NCBI GenBank assembly: GCA_031394795.1
Contig: JANNUB010000300.1
Coordinates: 1 to 43,100, forward strand
Reading direction: 5' to 3'
Source of the DNA: Ignavibacteriota bacterium
GTDB lineage: Bacteria; Bacteroidota; Ignavibacteria; UBA10030; UBA6906
DNA: 43,100 nt
The number at the start of each line of letters is the position of its first letter. Positions within the stretch are counted from its first letter, which is position 1. The notes under the pieces were generated by a model. That model made no database searches. It saw nothing but the letters and a program-made list of their open reading frames with translations, and had not been told where the DNA came from. Of the stretch, positions 5,502 through 43,100 are shown piece after piece. The position numbers and the translations under genes were made by a program.

Positions 5502-6641
5502 TTATGCTGAAACGAGCAGTGCTGAAGGGCGATGAGTCGCGAGCCGCGCCCGGCGGGCATCCTCTTTCGATGTTATGACGGCAAGCTGCCCGCATGCGGC
5601 ATCGATATCTTCACCCGCGCTGCTTCGCACAAACACGTTGAGATTATGCGCGCGAAGGCGATCGGCGAGTTGCTGCGTTCGCGGCGAAGATTTCATGCCT
5701 GCCCCTATGCCCGTAAACGTAATGTCGTGGTACGGAATGATGTTGATCTTGCATGGAACGCGTCTCGCTATCGTGATGAGTTGACGCACTTCGTATTCCG
5801 AATCGTTCACGCCGTCAAAGAAAATGTATTCATACGTGACGCGCTTCTTGGTTTTGCGGTGATAATACTCAAGTGCCGGCATCAACACGTCGAGGGGGAA
5901 TTTTTTGTTGATGGGCATCAGCTTCGTCCGCGTTTCGTTTACCGCACTGTGCAGCGACACTGCGAGCCTTGCCTTCACTCCATCATCTGCCATCTGCCGA
6001 ATGTTGTCCGCCCAGCCCGCGGTTGAGATCGTGATGCGCTTTGCGGGAAAGTTCATTCCACCGATCATAATTTCGACCGCGTTCATCACATTGCGGTAGT
6101 TCATCAGCGGCTCGCCCATGCCCATGAACACGATATTCGTGATGGGTCGCTCGCTTACGCGGCGAATCTGCACGACTTGATCTATGATTTCTCCTGCGCT
6201 CAGATTGCGAAGGAATCCCATCGTGGCTGTCGCGCAGAACTTGCAGTCGAGCGGGCATCCTACCTGACTCGAAATGCATAACGTGAGCCGGCGCTGTTCT
6301 TCTTCGTTCGTCGCATCGTCGCCGCGAAACGCGAGCCGCGGCGGAATGAGCACGCTTTCCACATTCAAGCCATCACGCAGCGCGATCAAGAATTTCGTCG
6401 TCGCATCGCGACGTGAGCAGTGCGTTCCTGCAATCGTCACCCCCTCGATGTAGGCAGACTGGATCAAATGCTCGCGAAAACTCTTCGCGAGACTCGACAT
6501 CTCGCCAAAGTCCCTCACATCTTTCGTGTAGAGCCACTCGAACAGCTGTTTGCCGCGATAGCGTTTCTCGCCAATTCGTTCAGCAACATCGGAAAGCTCT
6601 TGGAGGGTCAGGCCCAGCAGGTTGTAGCGCGGAGCAGTCAT
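5502..6641 (-). CDS. rlmN: 23S rRNA/tRNA (adenine-C2)-methyltransferase, radical SAM
   Basis: The motifs CISSQVGCPLDCKFCATATMG and GMGEPL, plus overall collinearity, fit RlmN. Confidence 0.93.
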   Translation of the reverse strand: MTAPRYNLLGLTLQELSDVAERIGEKRYRGKQLFEWLYTKDVRDFGEMSSLAKSFREHLIQSAYIEGVTIAGTHCSRRDATTKFLIALRDGLNVESVLIPPRLAFRGDDATNEEEQRRLTLCISSQVGCPLDCKFCATATMGFLRNLSAGEIIDQVVQIRRVSERPITNIVFMGMGEPLMNYRNVMNAVEIMIGGMNFPAKRITISTAGWADNIRQMADDGVKARLAVSLHSAVNETRTKLMPINKKFPLDVLMPALEYYHRKTKKRVTYEYIFFDGVNDSEYEVRQLITIARRVPCKINIIPYHDITFTGIGAGMKSSPRTQQLADRLRAHNLNVFVRSSAGEDIDAACGQLAVITSKEDARRARLATHRPSALLVSA

Positions 6642-6718
6642 CCTGAAATAAGTTACGAAAGATGAATGGGTTATTCAAGGAAGTGGTTCCCCAAAGCGCG
6701 GACGGGCTCAAAACAAGA

Positions 6719-6745
6719 AAGCCTCCGAGAAAAGCTCAGAGGCTT
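6719..6745 (-). terminator. Candidate intrinsic terminator downstream of the OMP/lipoprotein genes
   Basis: 7-bp stem aagcctc/gaggctt with a 13-nt loop. On the minus strand it is followed by the T-rich ttcttgtttt. Confidence 0.45.
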
Positions 6746-6764
6746 GGATCATCTCAGTGATCAA

Positions 6765-7322
6765 CTACGGCTTCACGTTGGAATCGACCTGAAGGAAGAC
6801 GTCCATACACACGTTAAAGTTCGCAGTTACGGCCGGCCCAGCTCCTTGAGCTCGAAGTACAGCAACATTCGGCAGACTATTGAAACTCGTGAGGCCTGAA
6901 AGCAAGCTGCTCAACGCGACCGGATTGTAGGTGATCAATCCCCCCGAGTTGCGCAGCGAAACTCCGGCTGAGAAGGTTTCGTACTGCCCGCTAAACCTGA
7001 GCAACCTGGTTTCCGGTTGGCTGTCAAAGCGAACGTACACATCGCCGCTGACAATACCCTCTGGATGCGGGTGCGTGACACTAACGCGAACGTCATAGAT
7101 TCGGAGGGCCTGGAAATTCTCGCGGAAATCGGACGGGATCAGACCCTTAACGCTGATTTGCCCTGTTGAGCTGTTGAACGAGCCATTGCCCGTATTGATC
7201 GTCGCGCACCCGGAGATCGGATCGGCATCAACAGAAACCGTGATCGGATCATAGAGGCAGTCGAAGCCCGTCGTCGTCATCACAACAACGACAAGAACAA
7301 GAAGAAGAAGTTTTGTTTTCAT
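6765..7322 (-). CDS. Uncharacterised secreted protein / putative lipoprotein, copy A (paralog of 8397..8963)
   Basis: Hydrophobic signal MKTKLLLLVLVVVVM followed by Cys22. It shares with copy B the motifs C..D.I.VSV...PI, LIP, R(I/L)YD(V/F)(R/K)V, LLRF/ILRF, LPNV(A/T)V and (F/Y)(L/I)Q(V/A)D. Confidence 0.75.
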   Translation of the reverse strand: MKTKLLLLVLVVVVMTTTGFDCLYDPITVSVDADPISGCATINTGNGSFNSSTGQISVKGLIPSDFRENFQALRIYDVRVSVTHPHPEGIVSGDVYVRFDSQPETRLLRFSGQYETFSAGVSLRNSGGLITYNPVALSSLLSGLTSFNSLPNVAVLRAQGAGPAVTANFNVCMDVFLQVDSNVKP

Positions 7323-7356
7323 ATAAACACTCCTGAATTTTTTTTGCGGTGTTGAA

Positions 7357-8271
7357 TTAGAAACCGAAGCCGATGCTTGTCGAGATACTCGTCACCGAAC
7401 CGAAGTTCAGATCTCCATGCAGATGAACAACGCCGAGATTCAGCGCTGCCCCAACTGTCCCACGCACTTTGTCTTTTCCTTCAAACGTAACGCTCACGTT
7501 CTGGCTACCGCTCGCAGTAGAAGTGAAATTCAAATCCATGCTGTTCTTCGTATAGCCGAAGCCGCCGTACAATTCGAGAATCGAAAATGTCTTGCTGACC
7601 TGCGGTCCGGCGTAGAAGCTGGAAACGCTAATGTAATCGCCAAAGGTGATCTTGTTATAGAAAATTCCAACGGCAATATGAACCGGCGGTTCTCCTTCGC
7701 CAAAGTATTGGCTAACGCTATGGCGCCCCCCGATGCCCCAATATGTTATCTTCGGCAAGCCGCTGATTTCGGGAACTGGAAACCCTCGTATGATCAACTC
7801 TGTCCCTTGCACGTGTCCGATGGTGGCTTGCAGCGCCACGAGCGGGAAGATGGGAAGATCATCGACAGAACCACCGCTTCCGGCATAGCTCAGTCCGGTC
7901 GCCGCATCCGTTACAACGGTTACTTCCTTCTTACCAAACACGGTTGCGGTGTTAAAGGTCTTTTGTGCAAACCCTTCCGGCGTTGCGGCATCGTAACTCT
8001 TCAAATCGTCGGAAAGAAGAGCGCCCATGCCGACAATGTTGATGGAGAGATTAAAGCCGCTGGGGGGGATGTCGGCTGAACGGTACCAGCCTGCCGTCAT
8101 GTTGGCAGCAAACAGATCCTGGAGTGGCTGAACATAGCCTTGCACCGTTGTCGCATTGAAGCTTTTGAGCGCTTTCTCGAGCGAGCTTTCCGCGTGCACT
8201 GCGGGAACGAGAACGAGCAGTGTAGCAAGCGATGCCCCTGCAAGTTTCCAGATGTGGTTCATACACTTCAT
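7357..8271 (-). CDS. Uncharacterised putative outer-membrane beta-barrel protein, copy A (paralog of 8987..9904)
   Basis: Signal peptide MKCMNHIWKLAGASLATLLVLVPAVHA from the internal ATG at 8271. There are alternating hydrophobic strands and a C-terminal aromatic end ...SIGFGF. Copy B shares the motifs GYV.PL.D.F.ANM.AG.Y.SA.IP, TAT(V/I)FG, G.G.RHS(V/I)SQY and LYGG.G. Confidence 0.75.
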   Translation of the reverse strand: MKCMNHIWKLAGASLATLLVLVPAVHAESSLEKALKSFNATTVQGYVQPLQDLFAANMTAGWYRSADIPPSGFNLSINIVGMGALLSDDLKSYDAATPEGFAQKTFNTATVFGKKEVTVVTDAATGLSYAGSGGSVDDLPIFPLVALQATIGHVQGTELIIRGFPVPEISGLPKITYWGIGGRHSVSQYFGEGEPPVHIAVGIFYNKITFGDYISVSSFYAGPQVSKTFSILELYGGFGYTKNSMDLNFTSTASGSQNVSVTFEGKDKVRGTVGAALNLGVVHLHGDLNFGSVTSISTSIGFGF

Positions 8272-33576: not shown

Positions 33577-35433
33577 TCACTGCGATTCAGCGACAACCTC
33601 AAAAATCCCGCCCGTCATGCCATCGAGCGGGATTTCTTTTTTGTCGCTCAGGTCGAATTCTTGTCCACTCAAAATTTCTCGTAGGCGGACGACGTTGTCG
33701 AGTTGATGTTCGAATCGCGAGAGGCTTACTGTTTGTTTCTCTTTGTTGCGGTTGATGATGACCATCGCCCGCTGGTTATTCAAAATGCGGAAGTAGACAT
33801 ACACTTCTTTTTCTGGTTTGAAGTGGACGAGCTTTCCCGTTTGCAATGGCTTGTATTGTTTACGAAGTACGAGGAGTCGTTTGGTGAAACTGAAAATGTC
33901 ATTCTCCTGCGCGATGCGTCCTTGTTCAGTGAATGCGTCTCGCTCATCGCTCTGCCATCCGCCGGGAAAATCGGCGCGCAATCGCCCGTGATCGCGTCCG
34001 CCCATCATCCCGATTTCTGTGCCGTACAAAATTTGCGGAATGCCTCGCGTCGTCAGCAACATCATCAGCGCAAGTTTGAACCGCTTCACGTCGCCTTTCA
34101 CATTGTACATAATGCGGCGGATGTCATGGTTGTCCAAATGCGTGACGAGGTTTGTCGGATCGGGAAAGAGAAAATCTTTCGTCAGACAATTGAACACTGC
34201 TTCAATCGAACCTGTTGAATCAACGAAGGCTTTCATGAACGCGTCGAACAATCCGAAGTCGGTGATGGTGGGAAGCTCCGGCTTGATGTTCTTGCGCAAC
34301 GCGCTGCCGCGTTGATGCGGCGCGAGATACGCAGGGTCCTGCACCCACACTTCGCCGACGATGTTGAAACGCGGATATTCATCCATGATTGTCTTAGACC
34401 ATCGCTCGCGAAATTCCGCGTTGATGTACGGATACGTGTCTTCGCGAATGCCGTCAATCCCGCTGAGCTCGATCCACCAAATCGTACTCTGAATAAGATG
34501 GTTGGCGACAAACGAATTCGATTGATTCAAGTCGGGCATGTAATCGCTGAACCAGCCGTTCGTTGCTCTCAATCTCGTGAGCGAATCGCTGTGTACATCG
34601 TCGATTTCAAATTTGGAGTGAAATGATTTTTGATGATTGTCGGGCGTGCCGTTCAACCAATCGGGCATAGGCAAATTCTTGGTCCACGGATGATTGATGC
34701 CGATGTGGTTGTTGACGTGATCCATAATGACTTTGAGATTCCGTTTGTGCGCCTCACGTACAAATGTTGCAAACAATTCATTGTTTCCGAAGCGCGCATC
34801 AATGTTGTAAAGATTTGTTGTCGCGTAACCGTGATAGCTTGCCGATGGTCCATTGTTCTCGACAACGGGCGTCAGCCACAACGCCGATACGCCAAGATCG
34901 TTGAGATAATCAAGCTTGTTGATGACACCTCGCAGATCGCCGCCGTGTCTGCCGTACGGTTCGTTGCGATTCAAACTGTCGAGCAATGCTTCGACGCTGT
35001 CGTTCGTCGTGTCGCCATTTGCGAAACGATCCGGCACGATGAGATAAATAACGTCGGACGGAGTGAAGCCTTGATGCTCATCGCGCAACGCGCGGCGTTT
35101 CAACAACGGAAAGAGGAACGACGTGCTTCCATTGCGGGAAGACACAGTGAATCGGAACTCGCCCGGCTGCGCTTGTCGCGCAATCTCAACATCAACGAAC
35201 AGATACGATGCATTCCTGAGCGAATGAGTCTTCAATACTTTGATAGATGCGGACGACAACGAGACTTTCACGTCTCTTAGGTTCTCGCCGTACACCATCA
35301 ATTGCACCGTGTTCAGTTTCATGCCTGTCCACCAATTTGGTGGCTCGATCTTTTCGACGCGGGGCGGGGGTTGAGCGAACGAGAAATGATCGAACAGAAT
35401 GGCGGAAATGAACAGGGTCTTGAGGAAATTCAT
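33577..35433 (-). CDS. GH13 alpha-amylase-family glycoside hydrolase (cyclomaltodextrinase/neopullulanase-like), secreted
   Basis: Signal MNFLKTLFISAILFDHFSFA. GH13 regions are DRFANGD, KVIMDHVNNH, GIDGIREDT, IVGEVW and HLDNHD. Confidence 0.9.
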   Translation of the reverse strand: MNFLKTLFISAILFDHFSFAQPPPRVEKIEPPNWWTGMKLNTVQLMVYGENLRDVKVSLSSASIKVLKTHSLRNASYLFVDVEIARQAQPGEFRFTVSSRNGSTSFLFPLLKRRALRDEHQGFTPSDVIYLIVPDRFANGDTTNDSVEALLDSLNRNEPYGRHGGDLRGVINKLDYLNDLGVSALWLTPVVENNGPSASYHGYATTNLYNIDARFGNNELFATFVREAHKRNLKVIMDHVNNHIGINHPWTKNLPMPDWLNGTPDNHQKSFHSKFEIDDVHSDSLTRLRATNGWFSDYMPDLNQSNSFVANHLIQSTIWWIELSGIDGIREDTYPYINAEFRERWSKTIMDEYPRFNIVGEVWVQDPAYLAPHQRGSALRKNIKPELPTITDFGLFDAFMKAFVDSTGSIEAVFNCLTKDFLFPDPTNLVTHLDNHDIRRIMYNVKGDVKRFKLALMMLLTTRGIPQILYGTEIGMMGGRDHGRLRADFPGGWQSDERDAFTEQGRIAQENDIFSFTKRLLVLRKQYKPLQTGKLVHFKPEKEVYVYFRILNNQRAMVIINRNKEKQTVSLSRFEHQLDNVVRLREILSGQEFDLSDKKEIPLDGMTGGIFEVVAESQ

Positions 35434-35554
35434 TTGTTCGAATTATTGAAGGGATGTGTGGGAAAAGTAGTCAATACATTTGCTTTCTGCAAGCATCGCC
35501 GGTTGACATTCAAAAAGATTTCTGTAACTTGATGCAACAAACATAGGAGTACAT

Positions 35555-36820
35555 TTGAGCCTCGCAGACCGCATGCAAGAAATCCGCACAGGATTCAACA
35601 AGACATTTTGGATTGCAAATACCATCGAGTTGTTCGAGCGCCTCGCATTCTACGGCTCGAAGGCTGTCCTTACGGTCTACCTCGCAACGAAAGTCGGGCT
35701 GACCGAAGAGGCAGGCTCGCTTGCAGGATTCTTCAGTCTTATTCTCTACTCGATGCCGGTTGTTGCAGGAGTATTCGTCGACCGGTACGGCTTCAGGAGG
35801 ACACTCGTCGCGTGCTTTGCATTTTTTACTGTCGGCTATTTCTTGATCGGTTTGGCGGGGCTTGAATATGGTCAGGGCATCGTCAACGCGATCGGCAAGA
35901 AACCGTACATGATCGGCGTGCTGCTGCTGACGGCAATCGGCGGCTCACTGATCAAGCCGTGTATTGTTGGAACCGTCGAAAAAACTTCGGCGCCTGCGGT
36001 GAAGTCGCTCGGCTTCTCCATCTACTATATGCTGGTGAATCTTGGCGGGGCGATCGGACCGATTCTCGCTCTGCAAGTGCGGAAGAATATCGGCATCGAG
36101 TACGTCCTGATTATGTCGGCGCTTACCTCCGCGCTCATGCTGCTCGGGACGCTGTTCTTCTTCCGCGAGCCGGAAAGCCACGACGGCAGCACAACACCGC
36201 AGTCATCGCTGAAGAACGTCTTTGCCAACATGCTGCTCGTTTTCACGAACGCACGCTTCATGATTTTTCTCGTCATCTTCTCCGGCTTCTGGATCATGTT
36301 CTGGCAGATTTTCTATCTCTTCCCGTTCTATGTCACCGAAGTACTGAAGTTCCCCGACTTCGAGCTGCTCGAAACGGTTGACGCGTGGACGATCATTCTC
36401 GTCAGCGTACCAATCACTGCTCTTGCCAAGAAGCTGAGTCCGATTATCGCGATGACTGTTGGATTCGTTGTGGCGAGCTTTTCCTGGCTGCTGCTGGTGT
36501 TCTCCCCGACGATTCCCGGAGCCATTGCCGCCATGGTGTTGTTCGCCCTCGGCGAAGCGACGCAAGCGCCGCGTTACTACGAGTACGTCGGCGCACTCGC
36601 ACCGAAGGAGCAAGTCGGTACGTTCATGGGCTTCGCGTTCATTCCCGTTGCTATCGGTTCATTTACCGCGGGAGTCCTCTCGGATTACCTGCGGCACAAC
36701 TACCTCGAAGCGACGATGAATCCTGCGATCATGTGGTATATTCTCGCGGGCGTCGGGTTCGCTTCGACGGCGCTGATGCTGGTGTATAATTTTACTCTTG
36801 CGAAGAAATCTGCTGCATAG
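35555..36820 (+). CDS. MFS transporter, POT/PTR2 (peptide:proton symporter)-like; TTG start, alternative ATG at 35573
   Basis: ELFERLAFYGSKAVLTVYL resembles the POT signature. There are about 12 predicted hydrophobic helices. Confidence 0.75.
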   Translation: MSLADRMQEIRTGFNKTFWIANTIELFERLAFYGSKAVLTVYLATKVGLTEEAGSLAGFFSLILYSMPVVAGVFVDRYGFRRTLVACFAFFTVGYFLIGLAGLEYGQGIVNAIGKKPYMIGVLLLTAIGGSLIKPCIVGTVEKTSAPAVKSLGFSIYYMLVNLGGAIGPILALQVRKNIGIEYVLIMSALTSALMLLGTLFFFREPESHDGSTTPQSSLKNVFANMLLVFTNARFMIFLVIFSGFWIMFWQIFYLFPFYVTEVLKFPDFELLETVDAWTIILVSVPITALAKKLSPIIAMTVGFVVASFSWLLLVFSPTIPGAIAAMVLFALGEATQAPRYYEYVGALAPKEQVGTFMGFAFIPVAIGSFTAGVLSDYLRHNYLEATMNPAIMWYILAGVGFASTALMLVYNFTLAKKSAA

Positions 36821-37522
36821 ATGAAGTTGACCGTAACCATATTTTTGTCCTTGATAATTCTGAACCCTTCGTTCGGACAGAAAGCATCAACGCTCTCCGG
36901 CGAACAAATTCTCGAAAACATCGAAGCGAACTACGCGGGCATTCAAGACTACACCGTCGCGCTCGATGTTGCCGTTGACCTCGAGCGATTGAAAGTGCCG
37001 AAAATGCAGGCGACAATGTTCTACAAAAAGCCGGATAAGATTCAATTCAAGTCGGAAGGATTCGCGCTGTTGCCTAAGGATGGCGTCGGCTTCACGCCGG
37101 GCAGTTTGAGTTCACGATTCGAGGTTCAGAATGTTGAAGAGAAAACAAATGCTGGACAATTCGTTCTGACGATGACATTGAAAAACGATAAGACAAAACT
37201 CCGCAAAGCGTTCGTCGTCGTCAATGCATCAAACTGGACGGTCGCTTCCATTACCACGCCGCAATTCGACGGTCGACAGATGAACGCCACATTCGACTAT
37301 CGTCGCGTCGAAGGGCATTGGCTTCCTGCCACACTCAACGTGACGTTTTCTTCCGATACGACGGAAACTGAACCCACCGACCCGTTCGGACAAATGCCGA
37401 GCGCAGTGCGCTCATCGCAAATTCCCCGCAAGGGTTCCATTTCAGTTCGATATTCTGAGTATCGTCTGAATATGGGATTGACCGATGAGGTGTTTGAACA
37501 ACAGGACTCGCCACAGAAATAG
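36821..37522 (+). CDS. LolA-like / outer-membrane lipoprotein-sorting-like secreted protein (putative)
   Basis: Signal MKLTVTIFLSLIILNPSFG. The N-terminal block ILENIEANYAGIQDYTV...(M)FYKKPDKIQF is typical of LolA-fold proteins. Its ATG abuts the transporter stop codon. Confidence 0.45.
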   Translation: MKLTVTIFLSLIILNPSFGQKASTLSGEQILENIEANYAGIQDYTVALDVAVDLERLKVPKMQATMFYKKPDKIQFKSEGFALLPKDGVGFTPGSLSSRFEVQNVEEKTNAGQFVLTMTLKNDKTKLRKAFVVVNASNWTVASITTPQFDGRQMNATFDYRRVEGHWLPATLNVTFSSDTTETEPTDPFGQMPSAVRSSQIPRKGSISVRYSEYRLNMGLTDEVFEQQDSPQK

Positions 37523-37555
37523 TTAGGCGAAAGACGGATAACTCAAGGAATCCGC

Positions 37556-37596
37556 AGGGGCACGATCCCGACTCGTCGGGATGCCCCTACTTTTTT
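37556..37596 (+). terminator. Rho-independent terminator after the LolA-like gene
   Basis: The stem is aggggc..atcccgac / gtcgggat gcccct, followed by acttttttg. Confidence 0.75.
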
Positions 37597-37604
37597 GTCG
37601 CCTA

Positions 37605-37633
37605 TTGACATTAGCCTTCCAGAAATCTATATT
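37605..37633 (+). promoter_or_regulatory. Sigma70-type promoter: TTGACA - 17 nt - TATATT
   Basis: The -35 at 37605-37610 matches consensus exactly. The -10 tatatt is at 37628-37633. It lies 27 nt upstream of the mntR-like ATG. Confidence 0.6.
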
Positions 37634-37647
37634 TAGGTAAGCCTAAA
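37632..37647 (+). promoter_or_regulatory. DtxR/IdeR/MntR-type operator overlapping the -10 element and the start site
   Basis: The palindrome is TTTAGG-taag-CCTAAA. Bases 37633-37646 (TTAGGTAAGCCTAA) match 13 of the first 14 positions of the classical DtxR box TTAGGTTAGCCTAACCTAA. Confidence 0.6.
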
Positions 37648-37659
37648 ATCAAATCGTGC

Positions 37660-38313
37660 ATGAAAAGCATATCCACCGAAGATTACCTCAAAGCCGCCTA
37701 CAAGCTCGAAGAGAAAGGCGTCAAAGTCAGCACCTCCGCCCTCGCCGCGCAGCTTGATGTTGCCGATGCTTCCATCACCGACATGATCAAGAAACTTTCG
37801 GAGAAGGGCTTGCTCAGGTATGAAAAATATCAAGGCGTTGAGTTGACGGCGAAAGGGAAGAAGATGGCACTCGGCATCTTGCGCCGCCACCGCTTGTGGG
37901 AGATGTTCCTTGTTGAATTCCTCGGCTACTCATGGGACAAAGTCCATGATGAAGCGGAGCGGCTCGAACATGTCACGTCGGAAGAGTTGGAACATCACCT
38001 CGACAAAGCGCTCGGCTTCCCAACAAGTGACCCGCACGGCGACCCGATTCCGACGAAGGACGGCACGGTTGCGGGGAAAGAAGACGCAAGCCTTTCCGAA
38101 TGCAACGTCGGCGATGTCGTAAAAATTTCGCGCGTCAGCGATGAGAGCTCAGAACTTCTCCAGCACGCGGCAGAAATTGGGTTGGGGTTGAACAGTAAGC
38201 TCATGGTCAAAGAGAAAAAGAGCTTTGACGGCTCGATGATCGTCAAAGTCGGGGCGAAGCAACAGTTCATCAGCAAGCAAGTTGCCGAAGCTATTTTTGT
38301 TCAAGAAATCTAA
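37660..38313 (+). CDS. mntR: DtxR-family metal-dependent transcriptional regulator (MntR/IdeR-like) with a C-terminal FeoA/SH3-like domain
   Basis: Motifs EDYLKAAYKL, RRHRLWEMFL, HDEAERLEH and DPHGDPIP. Confidence 0.88.
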   Translation: MKSISTEDYLKAAYKLEEKGVKVSTSALAAQLDVADASITDMIKKLSEKGLLRYEKYQGVELTAKGKKMALGILRRHRLWEMFLVEFLGYSWDKVHDEAERLEHVTSEELEHHLDKALGFPTSDPHGDPIPTKDGTVAGKEDASLSECNVGDVVKISRVSDESSELLQHAAEIGLGLNSKLMVKEKKSFDGSMIVKVGAKQQFISKQVAEAIFVQEI

Positions 38314-38327
38314 AACGAAAAATCACC

Positions 38328-40184
38328 ATGGAACGTTCAACAGTTTCACTTTCCGAAGTTCATCGCAGCGTAGCGATACCGAACAAGGTCGGATTCCTGA
38401 AACGCATGTTCGCGTTCGCAGGTCCCGCGTATCTCGTGAGCGTCGGTTACATGGATCCGGGCAACTGGGCGACCGACCTCGAAGGGGGCGCGCGGTTCGG
38501 GTATCAATTAGTGTGGGTGTTGGTGATGTCGAACCTCATGGCGATTCTTCTGCAAACGCTTTCCGCTCGCATGGGTATTGTCGCTGGACGCGACTTGGCG
38601 CAAGCATGTCGCGAAAGCTATCCGGCGCCGGTGGGCTATGTGCTCTGGGTTCTCTGCGAAGTTGCAATTGCCGCGTGCGACCTTGCGGAGGTGCTCGGCA
38701 CTGCTATCGGTCTGAATCTTCTCTTCAATATTCCCTTACTCTACGGCGTCATCATTACAGGCTTCGATACACTCCTCTTTCTTGTCATCCAGAATTTCGG
38801 GATTCGCAAGATGGAAGCATTCATCATCACGCTCATTGCGACAATCGGCGTTTGTTTCGGCATTGAGTTGTTTCTTGCGAAGCCGGACATCGTCCAGATC
38901 GCCTCGGGGCTTGCACCGCAGTTGAGTTCCGAAAGTCTCTATGTCGCAATCGGTATCCTCGGCGCGACCGTGATGCCGCATAATTTGTATTTGCACTCGG
39001 CGCTCGTGCAGACTCGGTCCGTCCAGCAATCCCTTGAAGGGAAAAAACTCGCGTGCAAGTACAACATGATTGACACGGCAGTAGCGCTGAACGCGGCGCT
39101 GTTCGTTAACGCGGCGATTCTCATTCTCGCCGCGGCGACATTCTTCAAAAACAACGTCGTCGTCAACGAACTGCAGCAAGCGCATGAACTTCTAACTCCG
39201 ATGCTCGGCACCACTCTTGCAAGTACCGCGTTTGCGGTCGCCCTGCTCTGCGCAGGACAAAGCTCAACGCTCACGGGCACGCTTGCGGGGCAAATCGTGA
39301 TGGAAGGTTTCCTCCAGTTCAAAATGCGTCCGTGGATGAGGCGCTTGATTACGCGTACCATCGCCATCATTCCCGCCGTTATCGTCATCGCGCTCAAAGG
39401 CGAGCAAGGCTCGTACGGCCTGCTGATCCTGAGCCAGGTGATCTTGAGCATGCAATTGCCGTTTGCCATTGTGCCGCTCATTCAATACACAAGCGACAAT
39501 GCAGCGATGGGCTCGTTTGCCAACAAGCTTTGGGTGAAGATTCTCGCATGGGCGGTTGCCGTTATCATCATCGGCTTGAATGCGCGCCTCGTTGTTGATG
39601 CGCTCTCCGGATGGATTGCGGAGTCGGAAAACCCGCTGTGGATCTGGCTGACCATTGTTCCGGTTGCTGTTGCGTGTACACTCCTGCTTCTCTATATCGC
39701 GCTGCCGAAGCGCTGGCGAAAGAGAAAAGAACTGCCTGCGAGGATTGCGCCGCCCGTTGAGTTCATCGCGCAGAAATACTCGCGCATCGGCGTTGCGCTC
39801 GACTATGGCGCGATGGATGCCAAGGTGCTTTCCTATGCAATCTCTGCCGCTCAACGGGACGAAGCGGCACTGTACCTCTTTCACATTGTTGAAGGGGTGA
39901 GCGGACAATTGTTCGGGGGCGAGGCGTACGATGACGAGGCGAGGCGAGACGAGGAGCAACTTGAAGAAGTTGCAGAGAAACTGCGCGCGCGAGGAATTGA
40001 AGTGTTTCCCTTGCTTGGCTTCGGCAATGTTCCTCACGAGATTGTAAGGCTCAGCACCGCGAACACTATAGACTTGCTGATCATGGGCGCGCACGGGCAC
40101 CGCGGTTTGAAGGATTTGCTTTTCGGAGCGTCGATTAGCGGAGTCCGCCATGCGCTTACCATTCCTGTGCTCGTTGTACAATAA
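38328..40184 (+). CDS. mntH: Nramp-family divalent metal:proton symporter fused to a C-terminal universal stress protein (USP) domain
   Basis: The Nramp signature is GPAYLVSVGYMDPGNWATDLEGG with about 11 TM helices. The last ~140 aa (from about nt 39771) read IGVALDYG....VL..A...A......LYLFHIVEG...DLLIMGAHGHRGLKDLLFGASISGVRH...PVLVV, which is USP-like. Confidence 0.9.
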   Translation: MERSTVSLSEVHRSVAIPNKVGFLKRMFAFAGPAYLVSVGYMDPGNWATDLEGGARFGYQLVWVLVMSNLMAILLQTLSARMGIVAGRDLAQACRESYPAPVGYVLWVLCEVAIAACDLAEVLGTAIGLNLLFNIPLLYGVIITGFDTLLFLVIQNFGIRKMEAFIITLIATIGVCFGIELFLAKPDIVQIASGLAPQLSSESLYVAIGILGATVMPHNLYLHSALVQTRSVQQSLEGKKLACKYNMIDTAVALNAALFVNAAILILAAATFFKNNVVVNELQQAHELLTPMLGTTLASTAFAVALLCAGQSSTLTGTLAGQIVMEGFLQFKMRPWMRRLITRTIAIIPAVIVIALKGEQGSYGLLILSQVILSMQLPFAIVPLIQYTSDNAAMGSFANKLWVKILAWAVAVIIIGLNARLVVDALSGWIAESENPLWIWLTIVPVAVACTLLLLYIALPKRWRKRKELPARIAPPVEFIAQKYSRIGVALDYGAMDAKVLSYAISAAQRDEAALYLFHIVEGVSGQLFGGEAYDDEARRDEEQLEEVAEKLRARGIEVFPLLGFGNVPHEIVRLSTANTIDLLIMGAHGHRGLKDLLFGASISGVRHALTIPVLVVQ

Positions 40185-40210
40185 AACACAATGGAGAGGA
40201 GAGTTAGTTA

Positions 40211-41434
40211 ATGAAAAAAGAAATACAAGCGCTTGTGATTCTGTTGGGCACAAGCTTGCTTCCGATCGGCTGCGATCAGCTGATGACAAAAGCACCGGAG
40301 CCGGAGCAAGCGTTCGATTCGCCCATTGATGGTTTGACGAACGAGCAGCGGGGGATTTTCGCGCGTGGCGACGGGGCATTCGGCGAAGTCTTTACGTTTC
40401 AAACGGGTCTTGGACCGCTGTTCAATCAAGCAGCATGCGAACGTTGTCACGTTGGCGACGGACGCGGTCACCCGCGGGTGAATCTCAAACGCTTCGGCAG
40501 AAACTTAGGCGGTGGGCAGTTCGATCCGCTGATCGAATTTGGCGGCGCCCAGCTTCAAGAGCGGAGCATGCCCGGCTATCCTGCGGAGACGATTCCCGCT
40601 CACGCGAACGCAATCTCTGAACGCGCCGGACCCATCGTCGTCGGGCTTGGGCTTATCGAAGCCATCCCCGATCAAACAATTCTCAGCCGCGCAGACCCAA
40701 CAGATGTAGACGGCGATGGAATTTCCGGTCGCCCAAATCTCATCGCAGCGCCGGAGTTCCTTGGGTTCTCTCCGGGACCCTACAACGGAAAATATCTCGG
40801 ACGCTTCGGACGCAAAGCGGGAGCGATCAATCTGCTCCAACAAACAGCGAACGCGTATCATCAGGACATGGGGATTACATCCGACTTCATCCCTACGGAA
40901 AACTTCAATCCACTCGCTGGAGGAGCCGGCGGCGATCCGGTTCCCGATCCGGAAGTTCCTGCTGCAACGGTGAATGATGTCGTCTTCTACCTTCAGACAC
41001 TTCGTCCTCCGATCAGACGGAACGAAAGCGATGCGACGGTTCAACGTGGAGAGCAGTTGTTCCGTTCCATCAAATGCTCGTCGTGTCACGTTCCGGCGAT
41101 GACGACGGGACCACATGCAATCGCGGCATTAAGTAGTCGTCCCGCGTACCTCTATTCAGATTTGCTCTTGCATGATATGGGACCAGACCTTGCAGATAAC
41201 TTTATTGAAGCAGAAGCGACGGGAACCGAGTGGCGGACAACACCGTTGTGGGGCTTGGGTATCGTGCAAAATGTTCTCGGCGGAACGCCATTCTACTTGC
41301 ACGATGGGCGCACATCCGATTTACGCGTGGTGATTGACGTGCACAAAGGCGAAGCCAATGGTTCGCGCCTCGCCTTTCAGCGGTTGACCGTGGAAGAACA
41401 AGAAGCCCTCATCACGTTTTTGAAATCACTGTGA
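40211..41434 (+). CDS. Di-heme c-type cytochrome, DUF1111 / putative thiol oxidoreductase-peroxidase family
   Basis: Signal/lipobox-like [21 protein letters not shown]. Two heme motifs, CERCH and CSSCH. GLGPLFN..AC..CH and WRT.PLWGLG are typical of DUF1111. Confidence 0.8.
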
Positions 41435-41871
41435 TGGACAGAAAAACGTTTTTGAAATCAGCAACGGTCGCGTTCGTCACAGCGAGTGTTGTCCCTTTGT
41501 CGTTATTGGCGGAAGGATGCACTGCTTCGGCTCCGACGCTTCACGTTTCGTTAGTCAATAAGAAAGCCGTTGTTTCGCTTGCACAACTTCCCGACCTCAT
41601 TCAGCCGAACAGTTATGCAAAGGTGTATGTGGAGCAGTACGCAAACCCGATTATTCTCTTCGCAGAAGTGAATGGCGAGCTTCGCGCAGTGCTTAGTACA
41701 TGCTCACATTCTGGTTGCGAAGTGAAGAAACGGCGGACGAAGTTTGAGTGTCCGTGTCACGGCTCGGAATACGACTTGCAGGGACAGGTGTTGAGAGGAC
41801 CCGCGCCCGATCCCCTTGAAACATTTCAGGTTCAAAAGTTAATAGATCGGATAGAAATTTCTGTGGGATGA
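41431..41871 (+). CDS. Rieske [2Fe-2S] domain protein, exported or membrane-anchored
   Basis: Rieske boxes CSHSGC and CPCHGSEY with GPAP. The ATG overlaps the upstream stop (ATGA). Confidence 0.88.
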
Positions 41872-41875
41872 AGTT

Positions 41876-43051
41876 ATGAAAACAACTTATCGCGTCCTTA
41901 TGCTCGCCGCATGGCTTGGTCTCATCGGCCAGCAGGCATTAGCTCAAGATACAACCGTTCATCCGCCACTCGTGAAAGGCGGAATTTATGATCGCCCGTA
42001 CATCTTCCGTCCCTCGTCGCGCATTGCCATCGGTGGATATGCGGAAACAATGATCCGCTCCGAATATGAACAGGGAGTCCATGAGAACATTTCGTTTGAA
42101 GCAAGGCGATTCAACATTTTCATTTTTTCTTCCATCTCTCCTTTGATCAAATTGACGTCGGAGCTGGAATTCGAACATGGCACGGAAGAGATCAAACTCG
42201 AGACGGCGCTCATTGATATTCAGTTTTACGAGGAGTTGAACCTGCGCGGCGGCATTCTCCTTTCTCCGCTCGGCAAATTCAATATCGCCCACGACAGTCC
42301 GCGCAATGAATTTACGGACAGGCCTCTTGTCTCGACGCAGATCATTCCCGCGACACTTTCGGAAGCCGGCATAGGCGTGTTCGGTTCGTTCTATCCGCAT
42401 CCCGACCACCGACTGACCTATGAGACGTATCTCGTGAACGGATTCAACGACGGCATCGTCCTTGGCGGCGATGGAACGTCTATTCCGAGCGGTCGTCCGT
42501 CCGCATTTGAAGAAGATAACAACGGAAGCCCGGCCTTCGTCGGCCGCGTCGCGTGGATGCCCGAGACGTTCGGTTTGGAGCTGGGACTGTCGGCACACAC
42601 GGGATTCTACAACTCGTACAAGAAAGAAGGACTCGTCGTTGATGAGAAACGACGCCTCACCATTTTCGCGGTCGACGCGGAATATCGGGTGGACGATTTG
42701 GTTGTGACGGGAGAGTATGCGAGGGCGCGCATCGGAATTCCGCGGTCTCTTGTCGGATTGTTCGCTGAAACGCAACAAGGCTTTTACGGACAGGCGGTGT
42801 ACAGCATTCTGAAAGGCGTGTTGCCGCTGTTCCCTCAATCAACTTTAGCTGTTGGCGCGCGCTACGACTACATTGATCGTGATTCGGGAATTCGTGGACA
42901 CGATATGCATCGCGTGACCGTGGGAGTCAACCTGCGGCTCGTGCCCGACACCGTGATCAAGCTCGATTACCAGCATACATGGGAGTTCGACAGACTGACG
43001 AACGAAACACGCTCGGCAGTAATTCAATTCGGTGTGGCAACGTATTTCTAA
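41876..43051 (+). CDS. Porin-like outer-membrane beta-barrel protein of unknown specificity
   Basis: Signal MKTTYRVLMLAAWLGLIGQQALA, alternating amphipathic strands, and a C-terminal ...FGVATYF. It starts 4 nt after the Rieske stop. Confidence 0.65.
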   Translation: MKTTYRVLMLAAWLGLIGQQALAQDTTVHPPLVKGGIYDRPYIFRPSSRIAIGGYAETMIRSEYEQGVHENISFEARRFNIFIFSSISPLIKLTSELEFEHGTEEIKLETALIDIQFYEELNLRGGILLSPLGKFNIAHDSPRNEFTDRPLVSTQIIPATLSEAGIGVFGSFYPHPDHRLTYETYLVNGFNDGIVLGGDGTSIPSGRPSAFEEDNNGSPAFVGRVAWMPETFGLELGLSAHTGFYNSYKKEGLVVDEKRRLTIFAVDAEYRVDDLVVTGEYARARIGIPRSLVGLFAETQQGFYGQAVYSILKGVLPLFPQSTLAVGARYDYIDRDSGIRGHDMHRVTVGVNLRLVPDTVIKLDYQHTWEFDRLTNETRSAVIQFGVATYF

Positions 43052-43100
43052 AGCGTTGTTACTCCGTAATCAGTAATGCGTCACTCCATCACTCCATCAC

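Follow-up and report, generated by a model that had tools for sequence, protein, structure and literature searches.

What are the genes for a di-haem cytochrome, a Rieske protein and an outer-membrane porin doing directly behind a metal importer? The question is raised by contig JANNUB010000300.1 of an Ignavibacteriota bacterium (assembly GCA_031394795.1). Our window was the entire 43.1 kb of this contig, so the region 3' of the porin gene could not be read. The three genes form the tail of a five-gene operon in the order mntR, Nramp-USP, DHOR (DUF1111), Rieske, porin. On balance we favour the view that they encode a manganese-repressed envelope module, which would use redox chemistry to acquire a divalent metal in short supply (most probably manganese). 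A search of the literature found no publication describing a DHOR/Rieske/porin cassette, and the cassette appears to be a previously undescribed form of redox-assisted metal acquisition, in which the gene-level facts are solid and the chemistry is a proposal. The features of the operon are as follows, in window coordinates.

37605-37633, + strand: promoter TTGACA-17-TATATT, agreeing with the consensus at 11/12 positions, the top site within 35300-43100
37633-37646, no strand assigned: DtxR/MntR-type operator palindrome TTAGGTAAGCCTAA, abutting the -10 element, 5' of the regulator gene
37660-38313, + strand: DtxR-family repressor, MntR-like (Pfam Fe_dep_repress, Fe_dep_repr_C and FeoA), with a C-terminal FeoA/SH3-like domain
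38328-40184, + strand: Nramp (MntH-type) importer fused to a C-terminal universal stress protein (USP) domain (PF01566, E 1.5e-136; PF00582, E 3e-21)
40211-41434, + strand: DHOR/DUF1111 di-haem c-type cytochrome, predicted lipoprotein, 407 aa (PF06537, E 7.5e-65)
41431-41871, + strand: Rieske [2Fe-2S] protein, 146 aa (PF00355, E 7e-15), likely true start ATG 41434
41876-43051, + strand: 16-strand outer-membrane porin, distantly OprP/OprO-like, 391 aa (AlphaFold2 model and Foldseek)

The promoter is the sole strong one of the five-gene operon. The regulator and Nramp-USP genes are 14 nt apart, and no terminator-like site lies between the regulator, Nramp-USP and DHOR genes, in gaps of 14 nt and 26 nt. 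The first-pass annotation had proposed three tightly packed genes, beginning 26 nt after the importer gene and with 4 nt between the last two. All three are present as open reading frames (ORFs) at those positions, and both spacings match the sequence (26 nt from the Nramp-USP stop at 40184 to the DHOR start, 4 nt from the Rieske stop to the porin ATG). The ATGA stop/start overlap that it described needs correction: the DHOR/Rieske junction is cTGTGATGg, giving an overlap of GTGA if Rieske starts at GTG 41431, or of TGATG if it starts at ATG 41434. We favour the ATG because the homologues start MDRK.

Are the three genes a unit elsewhere? On long contigs carrying porin homologues, DHOR and Rieske genes lie directly upstream of the porin gene in three distinct genomic settings (loci L003, L004 and L006), and a scan of one genome per species found the same order in nine further loci. 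In a phylum sample of 401 genomes the porin was matched in 87, strongly in about 55. The DHOR-Rieske-porin order is kept in 28 of the 30 best phylum loci, the remaining two being cut by contig ends, and in 20/20 further phylum loci; summed, the order is identical in 48/48 informative Bacteroidota loci. This arrangement is far beyond chance and marks the trio as a conserved cassette in its own right. The first-pass annotation had named loss of synteny elsewhere as the weak point of grouping them, and on this point the grouping stands. In 17 of 30 loci the stop codon of DHOR and the start codon of Rieske overlap, so that the two genes are usually translationally coupled; this suggests synthesis of both proteins in a constant ratio.

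The cassette is also widely spread. Exact-sequence look-up placed it in Flavobacterium hankyongi, Gracilimonas species, Ferruginibacter, Lacibacter and a Sphingobacteriales metagenome-assembled genome, and the database names among close homologues include KSB1, Zixibacteria, Poribacteria and Limisphaerales. The porin family comprises 294 clusters at 50% identity (E<=1e-30). In the myxococcote Minicystis rosea (Myxococcota) the trio occurs in another order, Rieske, porin, DHOR; the genes around it, for malonate decarboxylase and a PAS histidine kinase, are unrelated, and there is no operator box at this locus.

Within the genus of the window organism the cassette is not always intact. Genome G009 has a decayed copy (L030, counted among the 28) directly 3' of an intact Nramp-USP gene; the remnant joins DHOR residues 6-42 to porin residues 73 onwards and has a break in the porin frame near residue 300. 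Another genome of the genus, G145, has no porin match. The decayed copy and the missing match indicate that the cassette is dispensable in some strains.

Is the cassette under metal control? The first-pass annotation had placed a DtxR-type operator ahead of the importer, and TTAGGTAAGCCTAA does abut the -10 element, ahead of the regulator gene that heads the operon. It is the only match in the window, where 0.19 are expected, and the exact palindrome occurs once in the organism's own 4.7 Mb genome, across the -10 element of this operon. A search of 31 loci (554 kb) that allowed up to one mismatch found TTAGG-N4-CCTAA 25 times; about 2 are expected from the window shuffle rate scaled to 554 kb. 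Of the 25 boxes, 18 are in the ~110 nt that precede dtxR or DHOR, including every one of the 11 exact copies. The box stands upstream of the regulator gene where the regulator heads the operon and upstream of DHOR where the cassette comes first, and it is present with no regulator or importer nearby in L052, L053, L064 (Flavobacterium) and L006. Looser TTAG-N6-CTAA forms, which differ from the box at two positions, precede DHOR by 30-85 nt in L055, L060, L061, L063 and 19/20 further loci, at an estimated chance rate of about 0.1 per locus. Counting both forms, a DtxR-box heads the operon in about 40 loci.

The conservation of the operator is a separate line of evidence for placing the cassette in a DtxR-family regulon. 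As the operator is conserved even at loci with no adjacent regulator or importer gene, the metal control first proposed for the window probably extends to the cassette generally. L056 and L058 have another perfect palindrome, TT(A/G)GACAAAGTC(T/C)AA, just upstream of DHOR in place of TTAGG-N4-CCTAA; this may be a diverged operator or the site of another regulator.

Which metal does the regulator sense? Aligned to IdeR (1fx7), it has Asp8, Glu100, Glu103 and His104 at the positions of Met10, Cys102, Glu105 and His106. Guedon and Helmann reportedly identified Asp/Glu versus Met/Cys, in 2003, as the determinant of manganese versus iron specificity in the DtxR family. The best solved-structure matches are 5zr4 and 8pvt, followed by streptococcal SloR and ScaR, and we take all four proteins to be manganese-responsive. 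The top NCBIfam match is MntR, at a score below the MntR cut-off. Judged by its aligned residues, the repressor site is of the manganese type and not of the iron type. The sequence thus contains both marks of a DtxR/MntR manganese regulon, a palindrome at the promoter and Asp/Glu in the regulator.

The importers add to this picture. The window's Nramp-USP scores 597 bits against NCBIfam MntH (cut-off 430). In most relatives the Nramp-USP slot holds a twin-FeoA regulator-like protein and a FeoB split into two ORFs, and in this genus Nramp/MntH takes the place of FeoB at the equivalent position. The cassette has DtxR and/or FeoB or Nramp as a neighbour at about 20 of 31 loci, and the same is true of 7 of another 20, so that the link to a metal importer, claimed at first for the window, recurs with importers of both the Nramp and FeoB types.

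Several details of the importer slot are worth recording. In FeoB-type operons (L003:5048-8336; L007, L011-13, L046, L050, L051, L054) there is a second DtxR-like protein of ~345 aa, with Fe_dep_repr_C and twin FeoA domains and a merely faint DNA-binding domain, and the G-domain and membrane parts of FeoB are separate ORFs. The Nramp-fused USP domain recurs in relatives (window 38328-40184; L094), and in L007 a USP-like segment (6084-6242) follows the FeoB membrane ORF. This position behind FeoB suggests that the USP tail goes with the importer slot and not with Nramp itself.

The FeoB-type layout resembles the PgMntR-FeoB2 pair of Porphyromonas gingivalis, for which we know of no DHOR/Rieske/porin cassette. 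In the relatives this regulator-importer pair immediately precedes the cassette, whereas the window has Nramp-USP instead. PgMntR has twin FeoA domains and the adjacent FeoB2 imports manganese, although PgMntR binds Fe(II) too (PMC4805248). Manganese is the likelier signal and substrate of the window operon because of the regulator's metal site and this PgMntR/FeoB2-like layout in relatives, and because the genome holds a separate Fur-FeoA-FeoA-FeoB operon.

Could the metal nonetheless be iron? The trio might be a periplasmic ferric reductase with a porin, supplying Fe2+ to FeoB or Nramp under a regulator that senses iron. Most of the linked importers are of the FeoB type and PgMntR can bind Fe(II), both of which fit such a system, as does the company that DUF1111 proteins keep. 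Operons of imelysin/EfeO-like, DUF1111 and DUF1513 proteins, such as PA4370-73 of Pseudomonas aeruginosa, are regulated by metal starvation and act outside the cytoplasm; mutant fitness data tie imelysin-DUF1111 operons to iron uptake, and imelysin/EfeO-like iron-uptake operons are the only setting known for DUF1111 so far (PMC3143127; bioRxiv 10.1101/072470). The partners there are imelysin and a beta-propeller, whereas here they are Rieske and a porin under a manganese-type regulator. No imelysin/EfeO-like protein (Peptidase_M75) is encoded among the operon genes or elsewhere in the genome, which rules out an imelysin-type DUF1111 system. From the iron link that had been drawn through DUF1111, the metal-regulated setting can thus be kept; the iron part is at odds with the manganese-type regulator and with a genome that lacks imelysin.

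Other evidence also makes the iron system unlikely. The regulator has Asp/Glu where the iron sensors DtxR and IdeR have Met/Cys, Nramp/MntH has replaced FeoB in this genus, and two haems and a 2Fe-2S cluster would be costly under iron starvation. In addition, the organism's own genome and a close relative each hold a separate Fur-FeoAB operon with a paralogous porin and an FMN protein.

That second operon is instructive in its own right. On contig C425 of the same genome (L067:2938-8664) the genes are Fur, FeoA, FeoA, FeoB, a paralogous porin (6271-7485, Porin_O_P match, E 8e-9), an FMN_bind protein (7424-8161) and a 168-aa membrane protein. The Fur-Feo-porin-FMN_bind arrangement is kept in L068 and partly in L069, from two other genomes. 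In L096 a more distant porin lies between a divergent Fur gene and genes for FMN_bind, Aq_1264_TM and ApbE proteins, beside a cytochrome c-FTR1 permease; the context of another distant relative, L097, is uninformative. Reductive iron assimilation has been associated with flavinylated proteins outside the cytosol (PMC8238504), and the C425 operon appears to be the flavin-based equivalent of the Rieske/di-haem cassette. A design therefore recurs, in which a metal repressor is combined with a divalent-ion importer, an acidic porin of the family described here and an exported redox protein. This recurrence supports a role in redox-assisted uptake, and reduction is the favoured direction because FeoB and Nramp carry M2+.

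What chemistry might the di-haem protein perform? DHOR matches PF06537 at 219.7 bits (cut-off 22) in two stretches, leaving profile positions of about 84-212 unmatched, and is ~90 residues shorter than the Pfam model. Among 30 homologues its haem sites, C76ERCH80 and C289SSCH293, and its lipobox Cys21 never vary; the motifs LLHDMG, EWRTxPLWG and HDGR are invariant or nearly so. The C-terminal haem domain aligns with bacterial cytochrome c peroxidase (hhalign probability 88.7%, E 2.5e-6), the xRTPxL and HDGR motifs included. The Met of the peroxidase PYMHDG motif, which we take to be a haem ligand (a role played by a tyrosine in MauG), corresponds to Leu363 in the window protein and to Met in the Flavobacteriia type. 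The N-terminal domain gave no peroxidase match in profile-profile comparison. DHOR has no PF03150 match in Pfam, and this, with Leu363 at the Met position, excludes it from the di-haem cytochrome c peroxidase/MauG family.

This kinship raises the question of whether the cassette is a periplasmic peroxide defence used under manganese starvation. DHOR would be a peroxidase with Rieske as its donor, and the porin an Mn2+ channel like MnoP; the rationale would be that manganese-poor cells are peroxide-sensitive and that H2O2 would oxidise the incoming metal. The homology of the C-terminal domain to cytochrome c peroxidase, including xRTPxL and HDGR, argues for this, and so do the absence of a canonical PF03150 peroxidase from the organism's own genome and the name that Pfam gives the family, 'putative peroxidase'. 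However, the methionine that serves the peroxidases as ligand is a leucine in this clade, and the N-terminal domain has no detectable peroxidase similarity. The operator is an MntR-type box, with no recognisable peroxide-regulator context, and strict linkage with translational coupling to a dedicated porin, as seen in 48/48 loci, is not something that a peroxidase would require. We therefore regard peroxide defence as not very likely.

Relatedness to peroxidases would equally suit an oxidase-type uptake aid like EfeUOB. In such a system DHOR would oxidise M2+ with H2O2 or O2, Rieske would remove the electrons, and the metal would be trapped or handed on. EfeB and the imelysin-DUF1111 operons, for which oxidation of Fe2+ before uptake has been proposed, offer an analogy. 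However, neither the locus nor the genome encodes an Ftr1/EfeU-type permease or an imelysin, and Nramp and FeoB take divalent ions, for which oxidation would be counterproductive. This makes an oxidase-type aid very unlikely.

The Rieske protein is a plausible electron carrier for a reaction in the envelope. It matches PF00355 at 55 bits (cut-off 20.3) and contains CSHSGC...CPCHGS. Across 30 loci a Tat-like R[RK]xF[LI]K motif (DRKTFLK in the window protein), a lipobox Cys and the CxH...CxxH ligands are conserved, the Cys and the ligands invariantly. DHOR and Rieske are both predicted to be exported lipoproteins, Rieske probably by the Tat route. The closest solved structures are 110-aa Rieske chains of the cytochrome b6f type (5cxm, 8hn2), and the window protein has the CxHxGC...CxCH pattern of the bc1/b6f-like branch with both disulfide cysteines. 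It is not itself a bc1/b6f Rieske subunit: it scores 56 bits against NCBIfam PetC/QcrA cut-offs of 97-250 and has a lipobox, not a transmembrane anchor. No cytochrome b gene is present in any cassette examined. The Rieske proteins of L062, L063 and L064 (Ferruginibacter, Gracilimonas and Flavobacterium) keep the ligands and lack both disulfide cysteines (for example CAHQGA...CPAHGS), which suggests a different cluster potential there.

The third protein would be the way in. The porin ends in ATYF and has no cysteine and no haem motif. AlphaFold2 modelled it as a 16-strand barrel (pLDDT 81, pTM 0.79) with a helix-bearing internal loop at 130-160, and Foldseek matched the model to general porins, with a best TM-score of 0.62 (OprP, OprO); a sequence search of the PDB gave no match. 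All 32 aligned homologues are at least 50% identical, an unusually strong conservation. Seventeen acidic and 7 basic residues are invariant, with conserved acidic motifs ELEFEHGTEE (96-105), AHDSP (138-142) and FEEDNNGSP (211-219); Glu96, Glu98 and Glu100 alternate along one strand. As the conserved charges are mainly acidic, the channel is predicted to be cation-selective.

The nearest folds are OprP and OprO (PDB 2o4v, 4rjw), which share the 16-strand barrel and internal constriction loop, and relatives of the porin and its paralogue match Porin_O_P. OprP and OprO have an arginine ladder, whereas the conserved lumen-type residues of the window porin are Glu/Asp, so that selectivity for cations and not anions is predicted. 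The window protein has no PF07396 match at E<=0.01, although relatives match weakly, and with its mostly acidic conserved charges it does not belong to the phosphate-selective porin O/P family. An assignment to a known substrate-specific porin family unrelated to the redox proteins, seen beforehand as one of the dangers to the module, is thus not what the sequence gives.

The first-pass annotation had likened the trio to porin-cytochrome electron conduits. MtrCAB, PioAB and Pcc do have an outer-membrane barrel gene beside a c-type cytochrome gene in a metal redox setting. The conduits, however, hold multihaem cytochromes in barrels of 20-26 strands, and in Cyc2 a haem motif is fused to the barrel. 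Here the barrel has 16 strands, an internal loop and no cysteine, and the cytochrome carries two haems where a conduit would have eight to ten. The likeness to a conduit has to be dropped, and Cyc2 is ruled out by the same strand number, haem count and cysteine-free barrel.

The closest functional analogue of the porin, by co-regulation alone, is MnoP of Bradyrhizobium japonicum, which Hohle et al. (2011, cited in PMC6011978) are said to have described as an outer-membrane channel co-regulated with the inner-membrane Mn2+ importer MntH. In both cases a channel and MntH are under a manganese-responsive repressor. MnoP has no linked redox proteins, and its regulator, Mur, is of the Fur family and not the DtxR family.

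How might the module work? When manganese is low, MntR would leave the operator. Metal species would enter through the acidic porin in the outer membrane, the Rieske protein, anchored in the membrane, would pass single electrons to or from the di-haem protein, and the di-haem protein would change the oxidation state of the metal. The likeliest reaction would be the reduction of Mn(III)/Mn(IV) or Fe(III) to M2+, and Nramp or FeoB would then take up M2+, the sole form they carry.

Several observations weigh against a redox module for manganese. Genome G009 keeps Nramp-USP with a decayed cassette, showing that the importer works without it. The linked importers, being mostly FeoB-type, are compatible with iron, and in L004, L006, L052, L055-58 and L014 the trio has no importer or regulator in view. 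No electron source for Rieske is encoded within the cassette. For DHOR, no solved relative turned up in the PDB by sequence or profile search, the AlphaFold2 model is poor (pLDDT 51), and its kinship with peroxidases fits oxidative as well as reductive chemistry. With these points set beside the conserved operator, the manganese-type regulator and the recurring design, a manganese-repressed module for redox-assisted acquisition of divalent metal still seems to us the best account of the operon.

A more specific version of this account is more tentative, and we put it forward as a possibility: the cassette may be the first dedicated assimilatory manganese reductase, in which electrons passing from the Tat-exported Rieske lipoprotein to DUF1111 would reduce soluble Mn(III) complexes or species derived from Mn(IV) oxide, let in by a cation-selective porin, to Mn2+ for MntH or FeoB2.

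On the 5' side of the operon, at 35555-37522, lie genes for an MFS (PTR2-like) transporter and a 233-aa exported protein with a weak DUF4292/TP_0789-like match. They are syntenic with the operon in L003, L011 and L012.

The uptake of manganese is understood at the inner membrane, through MntH, MntABC and FeoB2. To our knowledge almost nothing is known of how manganese crosses the outer membrane, and we know of no work on bacterial redox mobilisation of oxidised manganese, unlike that of iron. If the cassette is an assimilatory manganese reductase, Bacteroidota and members of other phyla would be able to reach the oxidised manganese pool, and the DUF1111 family would gain a biochemical role. 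The cassette would also provide a first functional setting for the Rieske-linked branch of DUF1111, and one too for a family of acidic porins that recurs in metal-uptake operons of both the Fur and the MntR type. As it is present in cultivable genera (Flavobacterium, Gracilimonas, Ferruginibacter, Lacibacter and Minicystis), its role is directly testable.

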